Source of the DNA: Escherichia coli
GTDB taxonomy: Bacteria; Pseudomonadota; Gammaproteobacteria; Enterobacterales; Enterobacteriaceae
Reading direction: 5' to 3' (one strand)
Assembly: GCF_024502345.1 (NCBI RefSeq)
Contig: NZ_JALDNN010000001.1
Length of the DNA stretch: 64,000 bases
Of the stretch, positions 1 through 22,654 are shown piece by piece. The position numbers were made by a program, and so were the translations under genes. The notes under the pieces were generated by a model. It was not told the DNA's origin. It saw only the letters and a list, made by a program, of their open reading frames with translations, and did not search any database. Position 1 is the first letter of the stretch. Every line of letters begins with the position of its first letter.

Positions 1-2
1 AA

Positions 3-1118
3 ACGTTTTTTGTCAAATTTATTGAACAACTGAAAGGTATTTCGGTTGAGGATGATGTTGAATTCAATTTTTTTGAATTGGGTGGTTCCGGATATCTCGA
101 AAATCCAACTACGGATTTGATGGCTTTGTTTATGGGAGCCCAGAAAATGGTGCCGCCATGGTTGCTCAAAGCATTGCTATGTTGCCTAGATGATTCCCTC
201 GATGTTGATGAAATTGATTTCACTTCTCTGGAGCTAATGAGAGAGGCCCGAACAGAAGATGGGAAATATATTGATATTCTTATCAGACATGATGAATTCA
301 TTATAGGTATTGAGCATAAAGTTCTGGCTGATACATATAATCCTTTTCCCAGCTATGTAAGTCTCATTGATAGTTACGGCGGCAACAATCAAAAACTATT
401 TCGCTGTATATTAAAGCCTGACGGTAACAGCGCTAAAGGCGTAGACGGTTGGCAACTGATCAATTATTCACTGCTGCTGGAAACCGCCATTCGACGTCTG
501 GGGTTAGAGATGATGAATCAAGAGTTCAGCAAGTGGACTTTTTTTTATCAGGAGTTTTTAAGTCATCTTAAAAAATTGAGTGAGGTTAGTATGGATAAGG
601 TATCTGATAAAAATGTGGAGTTTGTCACTGAAAATTTCACAGCTTTGATAAAATCGGTTCAATTGCTGGAAATGTACCAAAATGCTATCACCGAGGAAGC
701 TAAATCGGTTGTCTCAGAGGTATTGCCTGATATTCATATTGCAACAGGTATTAATAACTGGAAGGGTTACTATAAAGCAATTCATCTGATGCCGGGATGC
801 TGGGGGCAAGGTAAAACAGGAATTACGTTAGTTTATCGCCCTTCAGAGGATGGTCGAGATGAAGCTGAGTTCTATGTATATGGATGGATACATTCAGATG
901 ATTACCCTGAAGTTAATGCACTAAAAGAAGAAATAAGAGTTGCTTTAAGTGCTGGAGATTTCATTCCAACAGCTAGCCCTGAGGACTATGAAGTATCAAT
1001 TACTGGGAAGGGGAAAGTGCTTGAACTGAGTTTTTGGGGGAATACGAGAAGCAAAAAAGATGCACTGGTTCTTCTTAAGGATATGACTAAGTGGATGGAC
1101 TCAAAAATAAGAACATAA
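3..1118 (+). CDS. Hypothetical protein, 5'-truncated at window edge; PD-(D/E)XK-type nuclease motif (YIDILIRHDEFIIGIEHK)
   Basis: Frame is open from nt 3 with no in-frame stop before the track ORF at 78 (TTG), so the true start is upstream; stop TAA at 1116-1118; AT-rich codon usage. Confidence 0.7.
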   Translation, partial: TFFVKFIEQLKGISVEDDVEFNFFELGGSGYLENPTTDLMALFMGAQKMVPPWLLKALLCCLDDSLDVDEIDFTSLELMREARTEDGKYIDILIRHDEFIIGIEHKVLADTYNPFPSYVSLIDSYGGNNQKLFRCILKPDGNSAKGVDGWQLINYSLLLETAIRRLGLEMMNQEFSKWTFFYQEFLSHLKKLSEVSMDKVSDKNVEFVTENFTALIKSVQLLEMYQNAITEEAKSVVSEVLPDIHIATGINNWKGYYKAIHLMPGCWGQGKTGITLVYRPSEDGRDEAEFYVYGWIHSDDYPEVNALKEEIRVALSAGDFIPTASPEDYEVSITGKGKVLELSFWGNTRSKKDALVLLKDMTKWMDSKIRT

Positions 1119-1222
1119 AGTAATATGACTGAGTGATGACGATCTTTTTTAAATTGTGGATTATTAGGCTGGTAATTGAAGCGCCGAATAGACAGATATT
1201 AGAATAAAAGGAGAATATTCAA

Positions 1223-2404
1223 ATGATTTATCAGTGTGATACTTGCAGTAGAACGACTTTTGAGGTTAATTGTCCCTGGTGTAGTGGAGTTTCGCCTGTA
1301 AAAACGTCTGCATGGGGTTCAGCATCATCGACCTCACAAGCAATAGATATACAACGTATGACACCATTGAATCCATCGTTTTATCCAGAGTTTCAGTATC
1401 GTTCAAAGGGTGTTCTAAAAGATCTATTTGGGAAAAAGAAAGAGCAAACTCAGCTTAATCAATTGCTTGAAAATGTTCTCGAAAAATACTCCAGTTTAAA
1501 AGATCCATATTTTACTAACTTCATTTACACTTCCAGATTCTCACATAATAATAAATCGGAAGCAGATTACTCAACAGATAATGGTACATACTCCGAATTA
1601 CAACTTTTCCGTGAGGTGTTGGTCAGAAAAGGGTTCAATGAGCTTGAAGAGTTACCTGAGCTATTAGATAAATTACTCCTTACCACGTCATTTAACGCTC
1701 TTTATTATGGTTTCGCTAAGGAAGTTAAACGGCATATTAAATCTACACTTACTGAATCCTTGAAGTCATGGATTGAGGAAGCGGGTACCACTTTTAGGGC
1801 AGATCTTTCATTGTTTCTATTCTATATATGGAGCAATAAAATAGAGTTCTCATCAGTAGAGTTCAATGAAAAAGCGGAGGCTACGCCTGGTGTTCCTTTA
1901 GTTTCATTTGATGAAGTTAAAAAATACTTAGCTGTGTGCGAACATATTTATTTTGATATTCTGGTTGATAGATTAGCTACACGGCTCGAACATTTTAACC
2001 CTAACAAATTCGTCACCATGTATTTAGTTGATGCAATGGACGGTTTCCAGTTTGAAGATTTCCTTGTGGAAGTATTCCAGACTATGGGCTATGACGTCAA
2101 AGAAACCAAGAGAACGCAAGATCAGGGGGCAGATCTCTTCGTCACTCGATTTGGTAAGGATATGGTTATTCAGGCGAAAAATTATTCTGGTTCTGTAGGT
2201 AACTCGGCGGTGCAGCAGGTGATCTCTGCTAAAACATTCTATGGTTGTGATGAGGCGATGGTTGTGACTAATTCCTACTTCACTCGCTCTGCGAAAGAGT
2301 TAGCTGAATCAGCCTTGGTACGTCTGATCGACAGGGATGAACTGCAAAAGTATCTGGATGATTACAATCAGAAGATAATTGAAGATTTCCAGTCAAACTC
2401 GTAA
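1223..2404 (+). CDS. Zinc-ribbon protein with C-terminal Mrr-like (type IV restriction endonuclease-like) catalytic domain
   Basis: 393-aa ORF; SD aaggag upstream of ATG; N-terminal CDTC...CPWC; C-terminal GADLFVTRFGKDMVIQAKNYSG...LIDRDEL resembles the Mrr_cat core (D ... QxK). Confidence 0.75.
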   Translation: MIYQCDTCSRTTFEVNCPWCSGVSPVKTSAWGSASSTSQAIDIQRMTPLNPSFYPEFQYRSKGVLKDLFGKKKEQTQLNQLLENVLEKYSSLKDPYFTNFIYTSRFSHNNKSEADYSTDNGTYSELQLFREVLVRKGFNELEELPELLDKLLLTTSFNALYYGFAKEVKRHIKSTLTESLKSWIEEAGTTFRADLSLFLFYIWSNKIEFSSVEFNEKAEATPGVPLVSFDEVKKYLAVCEHIYFDILVDRLATRLEHFNPNKFVTMYLVDAMDGFQFEDFLVEVFQTMGYDVKETKRTQDQGADLFVTRFGKDMVIQAKNYSGSVGNSAVQQVISAKTFYGCDEAMVVTNSYFTRSAKELAESALVRLIDRDELQKYLDDYNQKIIEDFQSNS

Positions 2405-2589
2405 CTTTGCAGTCATATAGATATAGCAAAGGACAGGTAGGCCTCCGTGAGAGGGGGACTTACCTGTGCAGATTCTGTGCTCAAAGTTATCCAAGTCTAT
2501 CTATTTACTGCCAATTACAGTAAAATGAGTAAACAATTACAGCAAAGTTTCGCAATGCACTGCTATGTAACTCATTGATCCTGCGTAGA

Positions 2590-2645
2590 ATTTAAAATCC
2601 CTCGGCGTTCGCGCTGTGCGGGTTCAAGTCCCGCTCCGGGTACCA
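2590..2645 (+). repeat. attR-like partial tRNA-Leu (leuZ) copy: anticodon loop to 3' CCA only
   Basis: atttaaaatccctcggcgttcgcgctgtgcgggttcaagtcccgctccgggtacca matches the 3' half of E. coli leuZ; the preceding sequence does not match the 5' half. Confidence 0.8.
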
Positions 2646-2687
2646 TGGGAAAGATAAGAATAAAATCAAAGCAATAAGCAGTGTCGT

Positions 2688-2713
2688 GAAACCACCTTCG
2701 GGTGGTTTTTTTG
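2688..2713 (+). terminator. Rho-independent terminator downstream of the tRNA 3' end
   Basis: Stem accacc-ttcg-ggtggt followed by a T-run. Confidence 0.75.
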
Positions 2714-2840
2714 TGCCTGCAACTTGTCGTTACACCCTCCTTAATTTTTAATCACCGGCAAAGCCACTCAAAAAGTATCTCTGATACGGACCGGCATGTA
2801 AGATAGGTGCTGGCGAGTTGAGATCCACAAGGAAAAACGT

Positions 2841-3506
2841 ATGAAAACGGGACCGTTAAACGAAAGTGAGTTGGAATGGCTGGACGATATTCTGACCAAA
2901 TACAACACTGACCACGCCATCCTTGATGTGGCGGAGCTGGACGGTTTATTGACGGCGGTGTTGAGTTCTCCGCAAGAGATTGAACCGGAACAGTGGCTGG
3001 TTGCCGTGTGGGGTGGGGCTGACTATGTGCCGCGCTGGGCGTCAGAGAAAGAGATGACGCGCTTTATGAACCTGGCTTTTCAACATATGGCCGATACCGC
3101 AGAGCGTCTGAACGAATTCCCGGAGCAGTTTGAGCCGTTATTCGGCTTGCGAGAAGTTGATGGCAGCGAGCTGACGATTGTTGAGGAGTGGTGCTTTGGC
3201 TATATGCGGGGCGTGGCACTTTCTGACTGGTCAACATTGCCCGATTCGTTAAAACCAGCGCTGGAGGCGATTGCGCTGCACGGTACTGAGGAAAACTTCG
3301 AGCGGGTAGAAAAGATGTCGCCAGAAGCGTTTGAAGAGAGCGTAGATGCCATTCGACTGGCGGCGCTTGATCTACATGCGTACTGGATGGCGCATCCGCA
3401 GGAAAAAGCTGTTCAGCAACCGATCAAAGCAGAAGAGAAACCGGGGCGTAACGATCCTTGCCCGTGCGGTAGTGGTAAGAAATTTAAGCAGTGCTGCCTG
3501 CATTAA
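2841..3506 (+). CDS. yecA: SEC-C motif protein YecA (UPF0149)
   Basis: 221 aa; C-terminal [17 protein letters not shown] metal-binding motif; matches K-12 YecA. Confidence 0.93.
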
Positions 3507-3567
3507 GAGGCCAAATTGGGTGTCAGCGTTAATTCTGGCACCCAATAAGGAATTTGAGGCTATCTGA

Positions 3568-4779
3568 TCACCCCACTTCTGGTAACAACCCTGCCGCAAT
3601 CAAAAATTGCACGCCAATCACAGCAATACCACAGAGAAACACCACCACCAGCGCCGGACGACCACCTTTGACCCGGTAACCCGCCTGAGGATTGTGCTTT
3701 CTGCTTTGCCAGGTCAACAGCGAAGGGATAATCAATGCCAGTACCGCCAGCGCCACACCGGCGTAACCCAGCGCCATCACAAATCCTCGTGGATAAAACA
3801 GTGCAAACGCCAACGGCGGCAGAAAGGTAATTGCACCAGTTTGCAACCGTCCACCAACGGTATTTGAACGCTGAAATAAATCAGCCAGATAATCAAATAA
3901 GCCTAACGCAACGCCGAGAAATGACGTGGCGAGGGCTAAATCAGCAAATAAATGCACTGCCAGCTCAACATGCGGAGAGGCCACCATTTCGCGTAACGCC
4001 TGTAACAGCCCGTTTAATCCAGCATGATTAGCCAGCAATCCCATAAAGGTTGTTGAATCAATGCTGCCAAGCGTTGCCACCTGCCAGAAAATATATGCCA
4101 CCAGGGGGATCGCACTACCGGTTATAAACACCCAGCGTAGCTTACGAACGTTGCCATCCATATAGCTGACAATACTCGGCACGCTACCGTGAAAACCAAA
4201 TGAGGTAAAAATCACCGGGATTGCTGACAGAGCCAGCCCCTGTTGCAACGGCAGGGTTAAAAGATTCACTTTGTGAATATGCGGTAGCAGCAATACCAGC
4301 ATCACCACCAGAAAAATAATTTTGGCGCTGAACAGAAAACGGTTAAATAAATCGACCAGCGATGTTCCAACACAAACCACGCCACCGGCAACAAAAGTGA
4401 ACAACAGCACGCCAGCGGTTGCCGACATTGAAATACCTGTCCAGTCGCTGATGCTGGAGGCCAACAATTCACCGGCACCGCTGATGTATGCCGCAGTCAG
4501 AGCATACATTAAGAACATCATACTGAAGCCCGTCAGCCACTGACCGTAGCGTCCCAGATAGCGTTTTGCCAGCGTGCCAAGACCGGTATCTGCCGGAACA
4601 TGCTGGTACACCTCCAGCAGTAATAGCGCCGTGTAGCACATCAACGCCCAAAGCCCAATCAACAAGATTAACGTGACGCTAAAACCAACACCTGCCGCAG
4701 CCAGCGGCATTGCCAGCATGCCTGCGCCAATTGTGGTTCCCGCCACGATAAAAACACTTCCCAGAGTTCTGTTTTTCAC
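3568..4779 (-). CDS. tyrP: Tyrosine-specific transporter
   Basis: 403-aa polytopic membrane protein matching K-12 TyrP. Confidence 0.95.
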
Positions 4780-4870
4780 GCTTTCTTCTGTCCTGACGAT
4801 CTTTATGAGTGATATCTGCGGCGCAGGTTAAGGCATAACGGCTGCTTCGTCAAACCGACGTTACATATGG

Positions 4871-4888
4871 TGTAAATATAAATGTACA
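4871..4888. promoter_or_regulatory. TyrR box-like site upstream of tyrP
   Basis: TGTAAA-tataaa-TGTACA, one mismatch to TGTAAA-N6-TTTACA, about 90-110 nt upstream of the tyrP start. Confidence 0.5.
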
Positions 4889-4969
4889 ATAAAAAGCATT
4901 CAGTTCTGCTCTGGCGCAAAGTCTTCATAAGCGGCAATCGCTACGCTAGGCTTTTTTTGAGGAGGAACG

Positions 4970-5209
4970 ATGGACTCTATTCACGGTCATGAAGTGTTAA
5001 ATATGATGATTGAATCAGGTGAGCAATATACGCATGCCAGTCTGGAAGCTGCGATTAAAGCGCGTTTTGGTGAACAGGCACGTTTTCACACCTGCTCGGC
5101 AGAAGGGATGACAGCGGGAGAGCTGGTGGCGTTTCTGGCAGCAAAAGGCAAATTTATTCCTTCTGAAGACGGTTTTTCGACCGATCAGAGTAAGATTTGC
5201 CGTCACTGA
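4970..5209 (+). CDS. yecH: DUF2492 protein YecH
   Basis: 79 aa matching K-12 YecH. Confidence 0.9.
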   Translation: MDSIHGHEVLNMMIESGEQYTHASLEAAIKARFGEQARFHTCSAEGMTAGELVAFLAAKGKFIPSEDGFSTDQSKICRH

Positions 5210-5246
5210 TTTGAAACGGCGGCAGAAAACCTGCCGCCGGAGAGCA

Positions 5247-5744
5247 TTAGTTTTGTGTGTCGAGGGTAGAGAGTTCTTTGTCGATAAAATACAGACCTTC
5301 GCCGCTTTTGCCTGCCAGGCTTAATTTATCAATAATCGATTTGAACAGTTTCTCTTCTTCATGCTGCTCAGAAACATACCATTGCAGGAAATTAAATGTT
5401 GGGTAGTCCTGATTGGTCATTGCAGCATGAGCCAGTTCGTTAATTTTCTGGGTGATTAATTGTTCGTGTTTATAGGTTTCCTGGAATAATTCATCAAGTG
5501 AGGAATATTCAGCAAACGGAGATTCAACGGTATTAATACGCGGTAAATTGCCGGTATCAGTCAGGTAATCAAACAGACGCTGCATATGCGTCATCTCTTC
5601 CTGGGCGTGACGGCGCAGGAACGCGGCAGCACCTTCGAAGGTATGATAGCTGCACCAGGCGCTCATTTGCTGATAAAGCAGTGAAGAGTACAGTTCCAGG
5701 TTCATCTGCTCATTAAGTTTTTCAATCATTTCTGGTTTCAGCAT
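5247..5744 (-). CDS. ftnA: Ferritin FtnA
   Basis: Track ORF is 170 aa; internal start [10 protein letters not shown] gives the known 165-aa FtnA. Confidence 0.93.
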
Positions 5745-5914
5745 GATAGTGCTCCACAAAGGTTATATTTGTTGCTGTGGCGTCACTATAATTTGTTATT
5801 TTATTATTTGCAAAAGGTAAAATATAAACTTCAATTATTAAAAATACGAATGGGAATAAAACGCATTACCGCTATTTCTTTAATCAGCGAAGATCCCCTC
5901 GCTGATTAAAATAT

Positions 5915-6238
5915 TTAGAGAAAGACAGGGAAGGCGGAATGATGGCACTGATATGACAAAGTGAATTCCGTATTCAAACATAAGGAACCCGCAAAAAGGC
6001 TACAGTTGCCTACTGGCTGACCAAAGGGGATCGCGTGGGTATAGCCTTCCTGCTGGCATGCGCGATCGGCGATCCCGCGACTGACATAACGATCGGTATG
6101 GGCATGCTGCAAAAAAGCCTGGTTATAAACCAACCGTACAATACCTGTTGCCGCGTCAACTTCGCTCACATGGGCCTGGCGAGTAACCGTACACCCCGCC
6201 AGCGTTATTAATGAAAGAGTCAGAATCAGAAGTCTCAT
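5915..6238 (-). CDS. yecR: Lipoprotein YecR
   Basis: 107 aa; signal peptide with lipobox LAGC; matches K-12 YecR. Confidence 0.9.
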   Translation of the reverse strand: MRLLILTLSLITLAGCTVTRQAHVSEVDAATGIVRLVYNQAFLQHAHTDRYVSRGIADRACQQEGYTHAIPFGQPVGNCSLFAGSLCLNTEFTLSYQCHHSAFPVFL

Positions 6239-6402
6239 GGTCCAGCCAGAAGAGTAAGAGAAAGCACTATTTTACGCGTTACAGCGCTGCGACAATGACC
6301 GGAAAAGACGCCTGGCAGGCGCTATTTCTTGCCATCTGTAGGTGTCAGAAATAGGGGGGCTGTTTTTTGATTATCATTTTTATAACATTAAAGGGGTGTT
6401 TA

Positions 6403-6418
6403 TGTGATTTGTATCACA
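6403..6418. promoter_or_regulatory. CRP binding site upstream of azuC
   Basis: TGTGA-tttgta-TCACA, a perfect TGTGA-N6-TCACA. Confidence 0.7.
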
Positions 6419-6432
6419 TAAAGATTGATTTT

Positions 6433-6448
6433 TGTGATGGTTGTCATA
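6433..6448. promoter_or_regulatory. Second CRP-like site upstream of azuC
   Basis: TGTGA-tggttg-TCATA. Confidence 0.5.
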
Positions 6449-6500
6449 TTATAAGCGCAAAGACAATAACACCTGTATAACAAATGGTCGGAGTGCCGCG

Positions 6501-6587
6501 ATGAAACTGCGCAAAATCCTGAAAAGTATGTTCAATAACTATTGCAAGACGTTCAAAGACGTACCGCCAGGCAATATGTTCCGATAA
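6501..6587 (+). CDS. azuC: Small protein AzuC (28 aa), within the AzuCR dual-function RNA locus
   Basis: atgaaactgcgcaaaatcctg... encodes MKLRKILKSMFNNYCKTFKDVPPGNMFR; below the 60-aa track cutoff; terminator follows immediately. Confidence 0.85.
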   Translation: MKLRKILKSMFNNYCKTFKDVPPGNMFR

Positions 6588-6589
6588 CA

Positions 6590-6616
6590 AAAAACCTGCT
6601 CCGGCAGGTTTTTTTG
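6590..6616 (+). terminator. Rho-independent terminator of azuC
   Basis: cctgctccggcagg hairpin followed by a T7 run. Confidence 0.85.
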
Positions 6617-6701
6617 TGTCCTGATGACGGTGGATGTGACTATCGCTGAAGATGTGAAGCCGCTACTATAACGGCTTTCAAAATGCTATCAGGAGTTTAC
6701 G

Positions 6702-6953
6702 ATGTCCCAGCCGCTGAATGCCGATCAGGAACTGGTTTCTGATGTGGTTGCTTGCCAGTTGGTTATCAAACAAATTCTGGATGTTCTCGATGTAATCGCG
6801 CCCGTTGAAGTTCGCGAAAAAATGTCCAGCCAGCTGAAGAATATCGACTTTACTAACCATCCCGCCGCCGCAGACCCGGTCACCATGCGGGCAATCCAAA
6901 AAGCCATCGCGCTGATTGAACTCAAGTTTACCCCACAAGGCGGATCCCATTAA
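6702..6953 (+). CDS. yecJ: DUF2766 protein YecJ
   Basis: 83 aa matching K-12 YecJ. Confidence 0.9.
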
Positions 6954-7031
6954 AAAACCGCTGCTTCAAAAAGATGAGGCAGCGGTTTCTCAAAAACTTC
7001 ATCGGCGCAATGCATTAGCGCCGATGTATGA

Positions 7032-7535
7032 TCAATGCAGCTGATGCGACACGACATTCAGAACATGTTGGTCGGTCTGCACTGGGCACATACCAGCAAG
7101 TTTCGCACTGCGCACTTCATCAAGAATGATTTGCAGCAACAGACCATCATGCTGCTGTTCTTTTTCCAGATCGCGCAGGAAATTGACGGTTGAATCATCA
7201 TTCAGTTCTTTCGCTTCATCGGCTAACTGTGCCAACGTACTAGAACGTTGCTCGTATTCTTCCATCGTTTTTTGGAACAGTTCTTCCAGAGAGTTCAGTT
7301 TTTCACCGGGAACATCAATGGCTTTAACGATGGGGGTAGCGCCGACACTCTTCATAAAGTTAAACATGCGCATCATTTGGGTCACATTACTCTGTGCCTG
7401 GGCGCGAAGGAAAGTGGCGGTGCCGTTCAGACTCTGTTCAGAACACCAGTTACTCAGGTGAAGGTAGAGATTGGATGCGTAAAACTCGCGGTTAATTTGA
7501 GAGTTGAGTTTGAGAAGCATTCCAGCGGTTGCCAT
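7032..7535 (-). CDS. ftnB: Ferritin-like protein FtnB
   Basis: 167 aa matching K-12 FtnB. Confidence 0.92.
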
Positions 7536-8331
7536 ACCTAATATCCTTATATCCAGAAGTGGAGAGGTGCAAGATAAATCAAAACACCATAATTACTGTT
7601 TGCAGAATAATTCCTTTCTGCCGGTCCGAAATGTGATCGTGGAGTCAATTCTGACGATGATCTGAAATAAGAATAACGTCTGAACGGGTATAAGAAAATG
7701 CTTAAATCATCAAGTTTATATATTTTTACATTTCATTGATGAAATCAATGTAACTGCAATGAATTTTAATGATAGTGCTTTTTGTATCTTGTTGATATTA
7801 ATCAATTAATTTGAATTCATGATGAAGTGATGATTTTATAAAACGTTTTTTCATTTTTGCGAGATGGCTCTCATTATACGTGTTCTGTTAATTAATGAGC
7901 ACAGTGATAATTAATGACGAAATGAATGACGTGCATTTTCCACATCTTTGAGTTGCGGTTATTACACCATTTCAAAAACTCAACGCCAGGTAATGCGGCC
8001 TATTGACTGGTTAAAAAGAAGACATCCCGCATGGGTACCAAAGACAACAAGGATTTCCAGGCTAATCTTATGGATTAATCTGCTGTGCATTCGACAATTT
8101 GTCTGACAAATTGGCTTTCCCTTATGTCTTTTCCCGCTAAATTTATGCACGTTCTCACTGTAATTCTGCGATGTGATATTGCTCTCCTATGGAGAATTAA
8201 TTTCTCGCTAAAACTATGTCAACACGGTCACTTATCTTTTAGTTAAAAGGTAATGCTTTGTTTTCCGATTAATTTAACGAATGTCATTCGTTTTTGCCCT
8301 ACACAAAACGACACTAAAGCTGGAGAGAACC

Positions 8332-9321
8332 ATGCACAAATTTACTAAAGCCCTGGCAGCCATTGGTCTGGCAGCTGTTATGTCACAATCCGCTATGGCG
8401 GAGAACCTGAAGCTCGGTTTTCTGGTGAAGCAACCGGAAGAGCCGTGGTTCCAGACCGAATGGAAGTTTGCCGATAAAGCCGGGAAGGATTTAGGGTTTG
8501 AGGTTATTAAGATTGCCGTGCCGGATGGCGAAAAAACATTGAACGCGATCGACAGCCTGGCTGCCAGTGGCGCAAAAGGTTTCGTTATTTGTACTCCGGA
8601 CCCCAAACTCGGCTCTGCCATCGTCGCGAAAGCGCGTGGCTACGATATGAAAGTCATTGCCGTGGATGACCAGTTTGTTAACGCCAAAGGTAAGCCAATG
8701 GATACCGTTCCTCTGGTGATGATGGCGGCGACTAAAATTGGCGAACGTCAGGGCCAGGAACTGTATAAAGAGATGCAGAAACGTGGCTGGGATGTCAAAG
8801 AAAGCGCGGTGATGGCGATTACCGCCAACGAACTGGATACCGCCCGCCGCCGTACAACGGGTTCTATGGACGCACTGAAAGCTGCAGGATTCCCGGAAAA
8901 ACAAATTTATCAGGTACCTACCAAATCTAACGACATCCCGGGGGCATTTGACGCTGCCAACTCAATGCTGGTTCAACATCCGGAAGTTAAACATTGGCTG
9001 ATCGTCGGTATGAACGACAGCACCGTGCTGGGTGGCGTACGCGCGACGGAAGGTCAGGGCTTTAAAGCTGCCGATATCATCGGCATTGGCATTAACGGTG
9101 TGGATGCGGTGAGCGAACTGTCTAAAGCACAGGCAACCGGCTTCTACGGTTCCCTGCTGCCAAGCCCGGACGTACATGGCTATAAATCCAGCGAAATGCT
9201 TTACAACTGGGTAGCAAAAGACGTTGAACCGCCAAAATTTACCGAAGTTACCGACGTGGTGCTGATCACTCGTGACAACTTTAAAGAAGAACTGGAGAAA
9301 AAAGGTTTAGGCGGTAAGTAA
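8332..9321 (+). CDS. araF: L-arabinose ABC transporter periplasmic binding protein
   Basis: Track ORF 346 aa; internal start MHKFTKALAAIG with SD ggagag gives 329-aa AraF. Confidence 0.95.
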   Translation: MHKFTKALAAIGLAAVMSQSAMAENLKLGFLVKQPEEPWFQTEWKFADKAGKDLGFEVIKIAVPDGEKTLNAIDSLAASGAKGFVICTPDPKLGSAIVAKARGYDMKVIAVDDQFVNAKGKPMDTVPLVMMAATKIGERQGQELYKEMQKRGWDVKESAVMAITANELDTARRRTTGSMDALKAAGFPEKQIYQVPTKSNDIPGAFDAANSMLVQHPEVKHWLIVGMNDSTVLGGVRATEGQGFKAADIIGIGINGVDAVSELSKAQATGFYGSLLPSPDVHGYKSSEMLYNWVAKDVEPPKFTEVTDVVLITRDNFKEELEKKGLGGK

Positions 9322-9390
9322 TTTGCCGGAAAAATTCCCCTCTGCATGATGCAGAGGGGGTGTGAACGACCAGTGATTCACGGAGACGTT

Positions 9391-10905
9391 ATGCAACAGT
9401 CTACCCCGTATCTCTCATTTCGCGGCATCGGTAAAACGTTTCCCGGCGTTAAGGCGCTGACGGATATTAGTTTTGACTGCTATGCCGGTCAGGTTCATGC
9501 GTTGATGGGTGAAAATGGCGCAGGAAAATCAACTCTCTTAAAAATCCTCAGCGGCAACTATGCGCCAACCACGGGTTCTGTAGTGATTAATGGGCAGGAA
9601 ATGTCCTTTTCCGACACGACCGCAGCACTTAACGCGGGTGTGGCGATTATTTACCAGGAACTGCATCTCGTGCCGGAAATGACCGTCGCGGAAAACATCT
9701 ATCTCGGCCAGCTGCCGCATAAAGGCGGCATTGTGAATCGCTCATTGCTGAATTATGAGGCGGGTTTACAACTTAAACATCTTGGTATGGATATTGACCC
9801 GGACACGCCGCTGAAATATCTCTCCATTGGTCAGTGGCAGATGGTTGAAATTGCCAAAGCCCTGGCGCGTAATGCCAAAATTATCGCCTTTGATGAGCCA
9901 ACCAGCTCCCTTTCTGCCCGTGAAATCGACAATCTTTTTCGCGTTATTCGTGAACTGCGAAAAGAGGGGCGGGTGATCTTATACGTTTCTCACCGTATGG
10001 AAGAAATATTTGCCCTCAGCGATGCCATCACCGTCTTTAAAGATGGGCGTTATGTCAAAACCTTTACCGATATGCAGCAGGTTGACCACGACGCGCTGGT
10101 GCAGGCGATGGTCGGGCGCGACATTGGCGATATCTACGGCTGGCAACCGCGTAGTTATGGCGAGGAGCGCCTGCGTCTTGATGCTGTGAAAGCACCAGGC
10201 GTGCGTACGCCAATAAATCTGGCGGTTCGCAGTGGTGAAATTGTTGGGCTGTTTGGTCTGGTAGGGGCGGGGCGTAGCGAATTAATGAAAGGCTTGTTTG
10301 GCGGGACGCAAATCACCGCCGGTCAGGTTTATATCGACCAACAGCCGATCGATATTCGTAAACCGAGCCACGCCATTGCCGCAGGCATGATGCTCTGCCC
10401 GGAAGATCGCAAAGCGGAAGGCATTATTCCCGTGCACTCCGTTCGCGACAATATCAACATCAGTGCCAGACGTAAACATGTGCTCGGCGGTTGTGTAATC
10501 AACAACGGTTGGGAAGAAAACAATGCCGATCACCACATTCGTTCGCTCAACATCAAAACGCCGGGCGCGGAGCAACTGATCATGAATCTCTCAGGCGTAA
10601 ATCAGCAAAAAGCCATTCTGGGCCGCTGGTTATCGGAAGAGATGAAGGTCATTTTGCTGGATGAACCTACGCGCGGCATTGATGTTGGCGCTAAGCACGA
10701 AATATATAACGTAATTTATGCGCTGGCGGCGCAGGGTGTGGCGGTGCTGTTTGCCTCCAGCGACTTACCTGAAGTCCTCGGCGTTGCCGACCGGATTGTG
10801 GTGATGCGGGAAGGTGAAATCGCCGGTGAATTGTTACACGAGCAGGCAGATGAGCGTCAGGCATTGAGCCTTGCGATGCCTAAAGTCAGCCAGGCTGTTG
10901 CCTGA
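9391..10905 (+). CDS. araG: L-arabinose ABC transporter ATP-binding protein
   Basis: Internal start [10 protein letters not shown] gives 504 aa; two Walker A-type ABC domains. Confidence 0.95.
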
Positions 10906-10919
10906 GTAAGGAGAGTATG

Positions 10920-14272
<3,353 letters not shown>

Positions 14273-20992: not shown

Positions 20993-22654
20993 ATGATTAA
21001 CCGTATCCGCGTAGTCACGCTGTTGGTAATGGTGCTGGGGGTATTCGCACTGTTACAGCTTATTTCCGGCAGTCTGTTTTTTTCTTCCCTTCACCATAGC
21101 CAGAAGAGCTTTGTGGTTTCCAATCAATTACGGGAACAGCAGGGCGAGCTGACGTCAACCTGGGATTTAATGCTGCAAACGCGCATTAACCTGAGTCGTT
21201 CAGCGGTACGGATGATGATGGATTCCTCCAATCAACAAAGTAACGCCAAAGTTGAATTGCTCGATAGCGCCAGGAAAACATTGGCGCAGGCAGCGACGCA
21301 TTATAAAAAATTCAAAAGCATGGCACCGTTACCTGAAATGGTCGCTACCAGTCGTAATATTGATGAAAAATATAAAAACTATTACACAGCGTTAACTGAA
21401 CTGATTGATTATCTAGATTATGGCAATACTGGAGCTTATTTCGCTCAGCCAACCCAGGGAATGCAAAATGCAATGGGCGAAGCGTTTGCTCAGTACGCCC
21501 TCAGCAGTGAAAAACTGTATCGCGATATCGTCACTGGCAACGCAGATGATTACCGATTTGCCCAGTGGCAACTGGCGGTTATCGCGCTGGTGGTGGTATT
21601 GATTCTGCTGGTGGCGTGGTACGGCATTCGCCGTATGTTGCTTACTCCGCTGGCAAAAATTATTGCTCACATTCGCGAAATCGCCGGTGGTAACCTGGCG
21701 AATACCCTGACCATTGACGGGCGCAGTGAAATGGGCGACCTGGCGCAGAGCGTTTCACATATGCAACGCTCTTTGACTGACACCGTCACTCATGTCCGCG
21801 AAGGTTCAGATGCCATCTATGCCGGTACCCGTGAAATTGCGGCGGGCAACACCGATCTTTCCTCCCGTACTGAACAGCAGGCATCCGCGCTGGAAGAAAC
21901 TGCCTCCAGCATGGAGCAGCTCACCGCGACAGTGAAGCAAAACGCCGATAACGCCCGCCAGGCCTCGCAACTGGCGCAAAGTGCCTCCGACACCGCCCAG
22001 CACGGCGGCAAAGTGGTGGATGGCGTAGTGAAAACGATGCATGAGATCGCCGATAGTTCGAAGAAAATTGCCGACATTATCAGCGTTATCGACGGTATTG
22101 CCTTCCAGACTAATATCCTCGCGCTGAATGCCGCGGTTGAAGCCGCGCGTGCGGGTGAACAGGGCCGTGGTTTTGCCGTGGTGGCGGGTGAAGTGCGTAA
22201 TCTTGCCAGTCGCAGCGCCCAGGCGGCAAAAGAGATCAAAGCCCTCATTGAAGACTCCGTCGCACGCGTTGATACCGGTTCGGTGCTGGTCGAAAGCGCC
22301 GGGGAAACAATGAACAATATCGTCAATGCTGTCACTCGCGTGACTGACATTATGGGCGAGATTGCATCGGCATCGGATGAACAGAGCCGTGGCATCGATC
22401 AAGTCGCATTGGCGGTTTCGGAAATGGATCGCGTCACGCAACAGAACGCATCGCTGGTGCAGGAATCAGCTGCCGCCGCCGCTGCGCTGGAAGAACAGGC
22501 GAGTCGTTTAACGCAAGCGGTTTCCGCGTTCCGTCTGGCAGCCAGCCCACTCACCAATAAACCGCAAACACCATCCCGTCCTGCCAGTGAGCAACCACCG
22601 GCACAGCCACGACTGCGAATTGCTGAACAAGATCCAAACTGGGAAACATTTTGA
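20993..22654 (+). CDS. tar: Methyl-accepting chemotaxis protein II (aspartate/maltose)
   Basis: Start [11 protein letters not shown] gives 553 aa; C-terminal NWETF pentapeptide. Confidence 0.95.

Follow-up and report, generated by a model that had tools for sequence, protein, structure and literature searches.

Two adjacent nuclease genes at the edge of a mobile island of Escherichia coli, named here gene 1 and gene 2, are probably independent and separable single-gene cassettes carried in the variable cargo arm of a pipolin. Both are predicted from their sequences to encode active nucleases, and each cassette appears to be modular and methyltransferase-independent. The novelty is modest and lies mainly in gene 2. 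The window under analysis is a stretch of 64,000 nucleotides, 100% identical to E. coli CT02, and its relevant features are the following:

1..1118, + strand: gene 1, coding sequence running off the left window edge (375 aa, WP_042202021.1; PADLOC candidate family PDC-S26)
63..560, + strand: PDDEXK_4 nuclease domain of gene 1, aa 25-190 (Pfam, E=4e-13)
243-245, 273-275, 312-314 and 318-320, + strand: codons of the gene 1 catalytic residues E85, D95, E108 and K110, respectively
738..1109, + strand: C-terminal alpha/beta domain of gene 1, aa 250-373, without Pfam family
1119..1222, + strand: spacer of 104 nt between both genes, with gene 2's own AAGGAG Shine-Dalgarno sequence
1223..2404, + strand: gene 2, coding sequence of a stand-alone protein (393 aa, WP_042202023.1)
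1223..1288, + strand: four-cysteine motif of gene 2, C5-x2-C8 ... C17-x2-C20, a putative zinc ribbon
1355..2017, + strand: central helical region of gene 2, aa ~45-265, confined to the gene 2 family
2030..2353, + strand: Mrr_cat nuclease domain of gene 2, aa 270-377 (Pfam, E=1e-29)
2054-2056, 2132-2134, 2171-2173 and 2177-2179, + strand: codons of the gene 2 catalytic residues E278, D304, Q317 and K319, respectively
2587-2680, + strand: att direct repeat, a partial tRNA-Leu (leuZ) 3' end plus downstream bases, which is the yecA-side end of the pipolin

A sequence-only reading had described gene 1 as a 5'-truncated PD-(D/E)XK nuclease gene, and this was borne out by the Pfam match and by the annotated start, a TTG codon located 10 nt before the window. 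The protein presents, within a restriction-endonuclease-like fold, the conserved E/D ... (D/E)xK catalytic constellation of the PD-(D/E)XK nuclease superfamily, with E85, D95, E108 and K110 invariant across 34 homologues whose identity goes down to 29%, and its C-terminal fold is similar to those of YktB/DUF1054, T3SS-chaperone/YbjN-like proteins and the MotA C-terminal domain. Neither an NCBIfam family nor a PHROGs match was found for gene 1, and the plasmid collection contained only distant relatives of it, at 25-32% identity. The PADLOC profile PDLC04981 (PDC-S26) matched gene 1 with E=2.5e-50 over aa 5-296 (model positions 9-295 of 358, ~80%), and six further PDC-S26 profiles also matched. 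The same reading recognized no named defence system in the pair, which is right in that neither gene has a characterized named system, although gene 1 does belong to this candidate family. The PDC systems are 145 candidates, "single- and multi-gene", found as genes embedded in other systems (bioRxiv 10.1101/2024.01.29.577857), and this wording together with the naming suggests that the "S" in PDC-S26 stands for single-gene. The family is listed with the commonest defence systems that enterobacterial pipolins carry (PMC11551731), and a literature search for experimental work found its name only in that paper. As PDC-S26 is a bioinformatic candidate family, membership of gene 1 in it is uninformative on mechanism.

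The combination of an N-terminal zinc ribbon with a C-terminal Mrr-like core, also noted at first reading, was recovered for gene 2, the ribbon remaining putative. Its four cysteines (C5, C8, C17 and C20) do not vary among 14 homologues, are mostly kept at 34-59% identity and are missing in two distant members. In the AF2 model the cysteine motif forms short beta strands of low confidence, and confidence is low over aa 1-125 overall, so a specific sensor function for this segment is without structural support. The protein carries the Mrr_cat catalytic domain with the D...QxK signature, and relatives down to 34% identity share E278, D304 and Q317 without exception, with K319 present in at least 90%. 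Outside the nuclease domain there was no fold match, and aa 1-265 had no Pfam match. When aa 1-267 were searched with phmmer against 1.84 billion representatives, 47 matches were obtained, of which the full-length ones all measured 338-394 aa, and nine aligned full-length relatives showed the same architecture. The family is compact, and 60% identity is conserved from Enterobacterales to Burkholderiales. No NCBIfam family was found for gene 2, PHROGs matches were confined to the nuclease domain, sequenced phages contained no full-length relative, and plasmids contained just one, on a Burkholderia replicon. A profile search of PDB sequences gave no relatives of either the gene 1 or the gene 2 family. 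These data point to gene 2 as the founder of a compact three-part family composed of a zinc ribbon, a helical module and an Mrr-type D..QxK nuclease.

According to the CT02 annotation, the host element is a 27.5-kb pipolin at leuZ, bounded by pgsA and yecA. The intact copy of this tRNA-Leu gene (NZ_CP081698.1 1953835-1953921) lies 27.5 kb upstream of the window repeat in the source genome, and its alignment with the window showed an identical core at 2587-2652, corresponding to the 3' part of leuZ, with similarity running on to ~2680. ARAGORN detected no intact tRNA in window positions 1-12000, as expected for an att repeat that is a partial copy. Both genes are co-oriented on the + strand just inside this repeat, so their early description as cargo at an island edge was correct, and their GC content of 0.36-0.40, versus 0.52 in yecA, supports a foreign origin. 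The annotated order of the island is leuZ, an integrase, DUF2787, an 866-aa "DNA polymerase", an excisionase-like HTH protein, a second tyrosine recombinase and a Type I R-M array. This array consists of eight co-oriented genes, hsdM, hsdS, PDC-S12, hsdR, an M48 peptidase, the GmrSD/BrxU-like HEC-06, gene 1 and gene 2, with the PDC-S12 gene embedded within the Type I R-M operon; the six genes that come before gene 1 are upstream of it and outside the window. The initial remark that no methyltransferase was visible is true within the window, but hsdM lies in the same orientation ~8 kb upstream of gene 1, beyond the window limit.

The island is a pipolin, a described type of mobile element with a gene for a primer-independent DNA polymerase B. 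As in the published elements (PMC11551731, PMC7385651), a tRNA-Leu between pgsA and yecA, att repeats, recombinases of the IntSXT and IntP2 types and DUF2787 are present. Published enterobacterial pipolin cargo includes Type I R-M, PDC-S12, HEC-06 and PDC-S26 (PMC11551731), with which the insertion site and the PADLOC-scanned cargo of CT02 agree, and near-identical copies of both genes are present in ETEC H10407, a known pipolin host. The only Pfam match of the 866-aa protein, named DNA polymerase by PGAP (L001:2472-5072), was a weak one to DNA_pol_B_2 (E=0.011), with no NCBIfam match and no PDB sequence match, and its identity as piPolB is weakly suggested by that match plus the context.

Given their location adjoining the att site, both genes could work for the mobile element, with a part in its excision, replication or addiction, or they could be nuclease genes that are selfish or in decay; several truncated copies do exist in E. 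coli and in other genomes, and the defence role of both families is something that we infer. However, the conserved core of pipolins, formed by piPolB, IntSXT, IntP2, DUF2787 and two orphan proteins, with a recurrent WYL as well, includes neither of them, and both genes are found outside pipolins too. Moreover, across orders the full-length proteins show strong conservation and keep their catalytic residues invariant, and known defence genes recur as their neighbours, all of which makes a role outside defence highly improbable.

The pair had also been put forward as a candidate uncharacterised two-gene cassette, with its conservation as neighbours to be checked, and a census of relatives did not support a conserved pair. 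Gene 1 was present at only 7 of the 63 species-level loci with gene 2 relatives, all seven at ~98% gene 2 identity or more, and many intact solo copies of each gene were found. Gene 2 was alone at 96% and 94% identity (loci L017 and L018), at 86% in Yersinia, 84% in a Kosakonia prophage, 81% in Dickeya, 79% in Klebsiella (237 blocks of the contig index), 75%, and at every locus of 66% or less. PDC-S26 likewise behaved as a single gene, with solo homologues of gene 1 as intact ORFs in Kluyvera (77%), Pantoea (71%), Xenorhabdus (51%) and Pectobacterium (48%). L017 lacks exactly the gene 1 cassette (L001:19967-21222), and gene 2 there has taken over the leader found ahead of gene 1 in the window. 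A clean absence of gene 1 next to an intact gene 2 is seen in Atlantibacter and Enterobacter. In E. coli p10A a deletion splits gene 1 and leaves gene 2 intact, and four other complete genomes gave a similar two-piece match to gene 1. The junctions of the cassettes fall at L001:19966/19967, at window 1222/1223 and at window ~2404-2412.

Cooperation of the two nucleases, at least within the Enterobacterales sub-lineage where they are adjacent, would imply, for example, that one senses and nicks and the other degrades, or that they form a hetero-oligomer. Such a system would account for the recurrence of a 2.44-kb block with both genes in three contexts of that sub-lineage: in pipolins where either of two distinct genes lies upstream (gene 1 96-100% and gene 2 98-100% identical), downstream of CBASS in E. 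kobei (88% and 94%) and in Pantoea sp. M_9 (80% and 89%). Across these contexts the junctions are constant (left, L001:19967-19972; right, 22404-22412) while both genes diverge in step, and their prevalence among 5426 complete E. coli genomes is similar, 214 for gene 1 and 243 for gene 2. Against it, the solo gene 2 copies of L017 and L018, cleanly missing gene 1, are nested inside the paired clade, the p10A strain has a broken gene 1 beside an intact gene 2, both families are mostly solo elsewhere, and they differ in taxonomic range and in size (407 vs 45 clusters). We consider a two-nuclease system unlikely. The block could reflect co-transfer or optional cooperation within the sub-lineage, and as a transfer unit it holds for its three contexts but not for L017, L018 or p10A.

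The sequence between the genes argues in the same direction, as the spacer is strongly divergent between block copies and there is no translational coupling. Each gene has its own Shine-Dalgarno sequence. Two promoter-like hexamer pairs (1176-1205 and 1189-1216) were found in the spacer and no terminator-like site, but the promoter and terminator scan was no richer than that of shuffled sequence, so that the two sites are no evidence of separate transcription. No Rfam RNA family was detected in window 1-3000, and a repeat search yielded just short, chance-like matches. A paralogous origin of gene 1 and gene 2 was considered and rejected.

The neighbourhoods of relatives bear on a different view, according to which both genes are accessories of the upstream Type I R-M/HEC-06 array within one co-regulated, multi-layer operon. 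From hsdM through gene 2 the eight genes do share one orientation, with short gaps after hsdR, the PDC families were discovered embedded in such systems, and the hsdR-M48 neighbour families occur at 8 of 63 gene 2 loci, all of them in Enterobacterales with gene 2 identities of at least 79%. This association with Type I R-M is, however, confined to close Enterobacterales relatives. Elsewhere gene 2 relatives are found beside GajA/GajB (Gabija), PD-Lambda-1, PDC-M48B, PDC-S15, an AbiO/Nhi-like protein, PDC-M37B and CBASS, beside integrases and Rhs loci, and in one lambdoid prophage in the early region, between recET-like genes and a cI-like repressor. There are likewise copies of gene 1 with no R-M in the vicinity, and the E. 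kobei block follows CBASS, not R-M, making the accessory role very unlikely. A gene upstream of gene 2 in Erwinia and Pantoea, with the same 105-nt spacing, was considered as a cryptic gene 1 analogue and rejected, as it is an integrase.

Under the favoured reading of two independent cassettes, each nuclease would act alone in methyltransferase-independent restriction or abortive infection. The analysis shows the domain content, the intact catalytic residues, the modularity and the association of the genes with defence islands, whereas any such defence activity, with its substrate and trigger, is what we infer. Gene 1 would be a PD-(D/E)XK DNA nuclease whose C-terminal alpha/beta domain may bind a protein cue. 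Gene 2 would most likely be Type IV-like, its N-terminal module selecting the target, either modified DNA or a phage-derived cue, and its Mrr/MspJI/FokI-like domain cutting DNA, probably as an oligomer. A bolder version, in which gene 2 represents a novel class of stand-alone restriction or abortive-infection nuclease whose zinc-ribbon and helical N-terminal module is a new kind of sensor of modified DNA or of a phage cue, and PDC-S26 might cooperate with it in the sub-lineage that carries the block, is rather doubtful.

Should one gene or the other confer protection from phage, one or two single-gene nucleases would join the defence repertoire of E. coli, and protection by gene 1 would provide the first functional data on PDC-S26, common in pipolins including that of ETEC H10407. 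Gene 2 is the more useful target owing to its compact family, to an N-terminal module not known elsewhere and to its repeated location beside known defence systems. The clean cassette junctions, in turn, show the gene-by-gene rebuilding of pipolin cargo arrays. A specialist would find none of this surprising, since no domains are more frequent than PD-(D/E)XK and Mrr-like nucleases among the defence genes validated recently. In the DefensePredictor preprint, 14 PD-(D/E)XK proteins from E. coli were validated.

We compared the element and both genes with known systems. With enterobacterial pipolins (PMC5695915, PMC7385651, PMC11551731) the CT02 island shares the insertion site, att repeats, two tyrosine recombinases, DUF2787, a large DNA polymerase gene and a bimodular organization in which defence cargo occupies the distal end, and no element-level difference was found. 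Similarly, no feature sets gene 1 apart from PDC-S26, defined by "guilt-by-embedding" (Payne et al., bioRxiv 10.1101/2024.01.29.577857), and gene 1 likewise lies in or beside a Type I R-M region. Gene 2 is not described as a defence gene in PMC11551731, where neither "Mrr" nor "restriction endonuclease" occurs, and judging from its matches it resembles known defence families in the nuclease domain only. This Mrr-like domain, matched over gene 2 aa ~260-385, is common to ZorD of Zorya type II (E=2e-21), PDC-S02 (E=3e-16) and NA-iREase1 (E=6e-15), and the PADLOC matches to PDC-S02, ZorD and mREase_IV are limited to aa ~260-390 and to the C-terminal part of the models, not full-length. Gene 2 differs from these systems in being unaccompanied by helicase, NACHT or Zorya partner genes, and the island contains no Zorya genes. 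The NACHT-associated NA-iREase1 domains are termed "inactive", whereas the catalytic residues of gene 2 are conserved. Mrr and MspJI/AspBHI, which are Type IV or modification-dependent enzymes, have modified-DNA readers (a winged helix in Mrr, SRA-like domains); none of these was detected in gene 2, as its N-terminal 265 aa match no Pfam family, and in their place it carries the family-specific putative zinc ribbon and helical module.

Within the window's first 2.4 kb lie the two long co-oriented ORFs described in the sequence-only reading, and these features are real:

Window <1-1118, plus strand: gene 1, a PD-(D/E)XK protein of 375 aa, cut by the left edge of the window; in the source genome, E. 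coli CT02 (NZ_CP081698.1, a 100% match), the annotated TTG start precedes the window by 10 nt.
Window 1223-2404, plus strand: gene 2, a putative zinc-ribbon/Mrr protein of 393 aa.

Strong Shine-Dalgarno sequences are present separately before each gene, and the GC content over the two is 0.36-0.40, compared with 0.52 in the adjoining yecA. Low GC was also detected between ftnB and araF (window 7500-8250, 0.34-0.35 versus about 0.5 around), and outside the window (L002:32706-34627) the source strain has an IS5 element inserted in sdiA and a ybcM pseudogene.

The PD-(D/E)XK-type motif proposed for gene 1 was confirmed by a PDDEXK_4 domain at residues 25-190 (Pfam), and residues E85, D95, E108 and K110 showed no variation among 34 homologues with identities down to 29%. 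The protein matched the PADLOC profile PDC-S26 with E=2.5e-50 and around 80% of the model covered; gene 1 is thus a candidate that had been catalogued before. The PDC families, 145 untested candidates, derive from genes found inside BREX, DISARM and Type I R-M systems (bioRxiv 10.1101/2024.01.29.577857). We favour that gene 1 would act as a PD-(D/E)XK nuclease under the control of its own C-terminal alpha/beta domain.

The N-terminal zinc ribbon and C-terminal Mrr-like core attributed to gene 2 held as well: the cysteines at the N-terminus (C5-x2-C8 ... C17-x2-C20) were invariant in 14 homologues, an Mrr_cat domain closes the protein (Pfam, E=1e-29), and in homologues down to 34% identity E278, D304 and Q317 are unchanged and K319 almost so. 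The profile searches proposed for both proteins, which placed gene 1 in PDC-S26, connected gene 2 with known or candidate defence families (ZorD, PDC-S02 and mREase_IV in PADLOC, NA-iREase1 in Pfam) through its nuclease domain only. For residues 1-267, a search of 1.84 billion representative proteins gave 47 matches, the full-length ones all of 338-394 aa and with an architecture common to the nine that were aligned, and in the same set the module was not found joined to other effector domains. The like size and architecture of these matches support that the N-terminal module is limited to the gene 2 family. The Mrr-like stand-alone nucleases, of which gene 2 is an uncharacterised one, are a very common class; what is really new here is only the private N-terminal module of gene 2.

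The claim of an uncharacterised two-gene cassette was largely not sustained, given the PDC-S26 match of gene 1, the known type of the island and the rarity of the pairing. Gene 1 relatives form 45 clusters, mostly from Enterobacterales, and gene 2 relatives 407, from Enterobacterales, Pseudomonas, Burkholderiales and sporadic others. One genome per species was scanned; gene 2 relatives turned up at 63 loci, and only seven of these also held a gene 1 relative (tblastn, all 45 gene 1 relatives as queries), all with a gene 2 identity of about 98% or more. Six of the seven were confirmed by a profile search on six-frame ORFs; in the remaining one, which meets a contig edge, just the 3' end of gene 1 is present. 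At most 8 of the 63 loci had any one neighbour family in common. Instead of being conserved neighbours, as had been suggested for checking, both genes stand alone in many taxa.

Occurrences of each gene alone (percent identity)
Gene 2: Atlantibacter (96%) and Enterobacter (94%), directly after HEC-06
Gene 2: Yersinia (86%)
Gene 2: Kosakonia oryzae (84%; L085/L086, 6001-7179), in a lambdoid/Rac-like prophage, recET-like and kil-like genes on one side and a cI-like repressor on the other
Gene 2: Dickeya (81%), flanked by Rhs loci
Gene 2: Klebsiella (79%), 237 blocks of the contig index
Gene 2: Erwinia and Pantoea (75%), adjoining an integrase
Gene 2: all loci at 66% or less
Gene 1: Kluyvera (77%), resident gene at the same pgsA/tRNA locus
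Gene 1: Pantoea (71%)
Gene 1: Xenorhabdus (51%)
Gene 1: Pectobacterium (48%)

The prophage region taken by gene 2 in Kosakonia is the one occupied in phage lambda by the exclusion genes rexAB. In Kluyvera (L074, GCA_047779425.1, 4051-8128; L075-L077), the resident gene 1 paralogue lies directly at the pgsA/tRNA site, and in a Kluyvera strain that has the pipolin as well, gene 1 is followed by gene 2 and then by a second copy of gene 1.

A 2.44-kb block with both genes recurs with a common left junction (L001:19967-19972, L001 being the source-genome stretch that covers the island) and right end (22404-22412). It was found in pipolins with differing upstream genes (HEC-06 or a 163-aa ORF), in E. 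kobei following a CBASS operon (gene 1 88%, gene 2 94%), and in Pantoea sp. M_9 following hsdR and M48 remnants (gene 1 80%, gene 2 89%). This recurrence shows that both cassettes have been kept together in one Enterobacterales sub-lineage despite 10-20% divergence and changed neighbours, which agrees with the co-transfer of adjoining cargo and leaves a small probability to an optional cooperation of the two genes. In L017, the Atlantibacter locus, the DNA matches the source island up to L001:19966 and again from 21223, where gene 2 begins with its ATG; gene 2 there uses the leader that stands before gene 1 in the window. In E. coli p10A (L087, NZ_CP049081.1, 3001-3907) gene 1 has lost about 220 bp internally and is left as two ORFs of 119 and 202 aa next to an intact gene 2, and the same two-piece match was found in four other complete genomes of human, seawater and frog sources. 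Together with the solo occurrences, these loci show that the two genes can be separated and that each can persist without its partner. We consider the cooperation improbable; the pairing is a sub-lineage linkage and not a family-wide property. The junctions at L001:19966/19967 (34 nt before window position 1), window 1222/1223 and around 2404-2412 recur in four loci from unrelated genomes (L013, L017, L081 and L083), and the cargo genes are exchanged as precise single-gene cassettes; no repeat or recombination-site motif accounting for the precision of these junctions was found.

In other taxa, gene 2 relatives have among their nearest neighbours Gabija GajA and GajB, PD-Lambda-1, PDC-M48B, PDC-S15, an AbiO/Nhi-like protein and PDC-M37B, and 7 out of 20 scanned neighbours matched PADLOC families at E<=1e-5. 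With the CBASS operon upstream of the E. kobei block, this neighbourhood supports a defence role for gene 2, by association only. Each protein would be a methyltransferase-independent DNA endonuclease working alone, and gene 2 would be Type IV-like, its target picked by the private module of Zn ribbon and helices. The main alternative is that gene 2 would be a nuclease set off by phage infection (abortive infection); the Type IV-like reading is favoured jointly by its layout, a non-catalytic N-terminal module with a Mrr/MspJI/FokI-like cleavage domain and an intact D..QxK, and by its nearest characterised catalytic domains, which are those of modification-dependent enzymes.

The absence of a methyltransferase holds within the window; beyond it, the array that includes both genes holds hsdM. 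According to the annotation, an intact tRNA-Leu lies 27.5 kb upstream, following pgsA, tRNA-Gly and tRNA-Cys, and from there to yecA the island carries, in order, an integrase, DUF2787, DUF726 and an HTH regulator; an 866-aa "DNA polymerase", a small HTH and a second tyrosine recombinase; and a co-oriented array of hsdM, hsdS, a YecA-family gene, hsdR, an M48 peptidase, a DUF262 gene, gene 1 and gene 2. By PADLOC profiles, the YecA-family protein belongs to PDC-S12 (E=2e-98), and the protein with DUF262 to the BrxU/GmrSD-like family HEC-06 (E=1e-39). The polymerase gave only a weak PolB-type Pfam match (E=0.011), so this pipolin hallmark is deduced from context. Window 2587-2652 matches the 3' part of leuZ exactly, with likeness extending to about 2680, and no intact tRNA was found in window 1-12000. 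What had been named attR is this partial copy beside yecA (2587-2680), whereas in the pipolin literature attR is the repeat overlapping the tRNA gene (PMC7385651); the element is the same under the opposite convention.

Embedded between hsdS and hsdR, the PDC-S12 gene (L001:13263-13946) precedes gene 1 by about 6 kb and so falls outside the window; it is a full-length paralogue of host yecA (window 2841-3506; 57% identity, E=2e-98), and the likeness takes in the SEC-C metal-binding motif at the C-terminus. On the chromosome, host yecA, which encodes a housekeeping protein, directly adjoins the insertion site, a closeness that may be coincidence.

The island is a known type of element. Gene 2 is present at 96.5% identity in ETEC H10407, a known pipolin host (PMC7385651), and gene 1 at 97.3% in strain SEC470. 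In enterobacterial pipolins, a conserved core lies by the integration site, and defence cargo that can be exchanged occupies the distal end (Mateo-Caceres and Redrejo-Rodriguez, PMC11551731), and our island shares with them this layout, the insertion site at the tRNA-Leu between pgsA and yecA, and a cargo of Type I R-M, PDC-S12, HEC-06 and PDC-S26.
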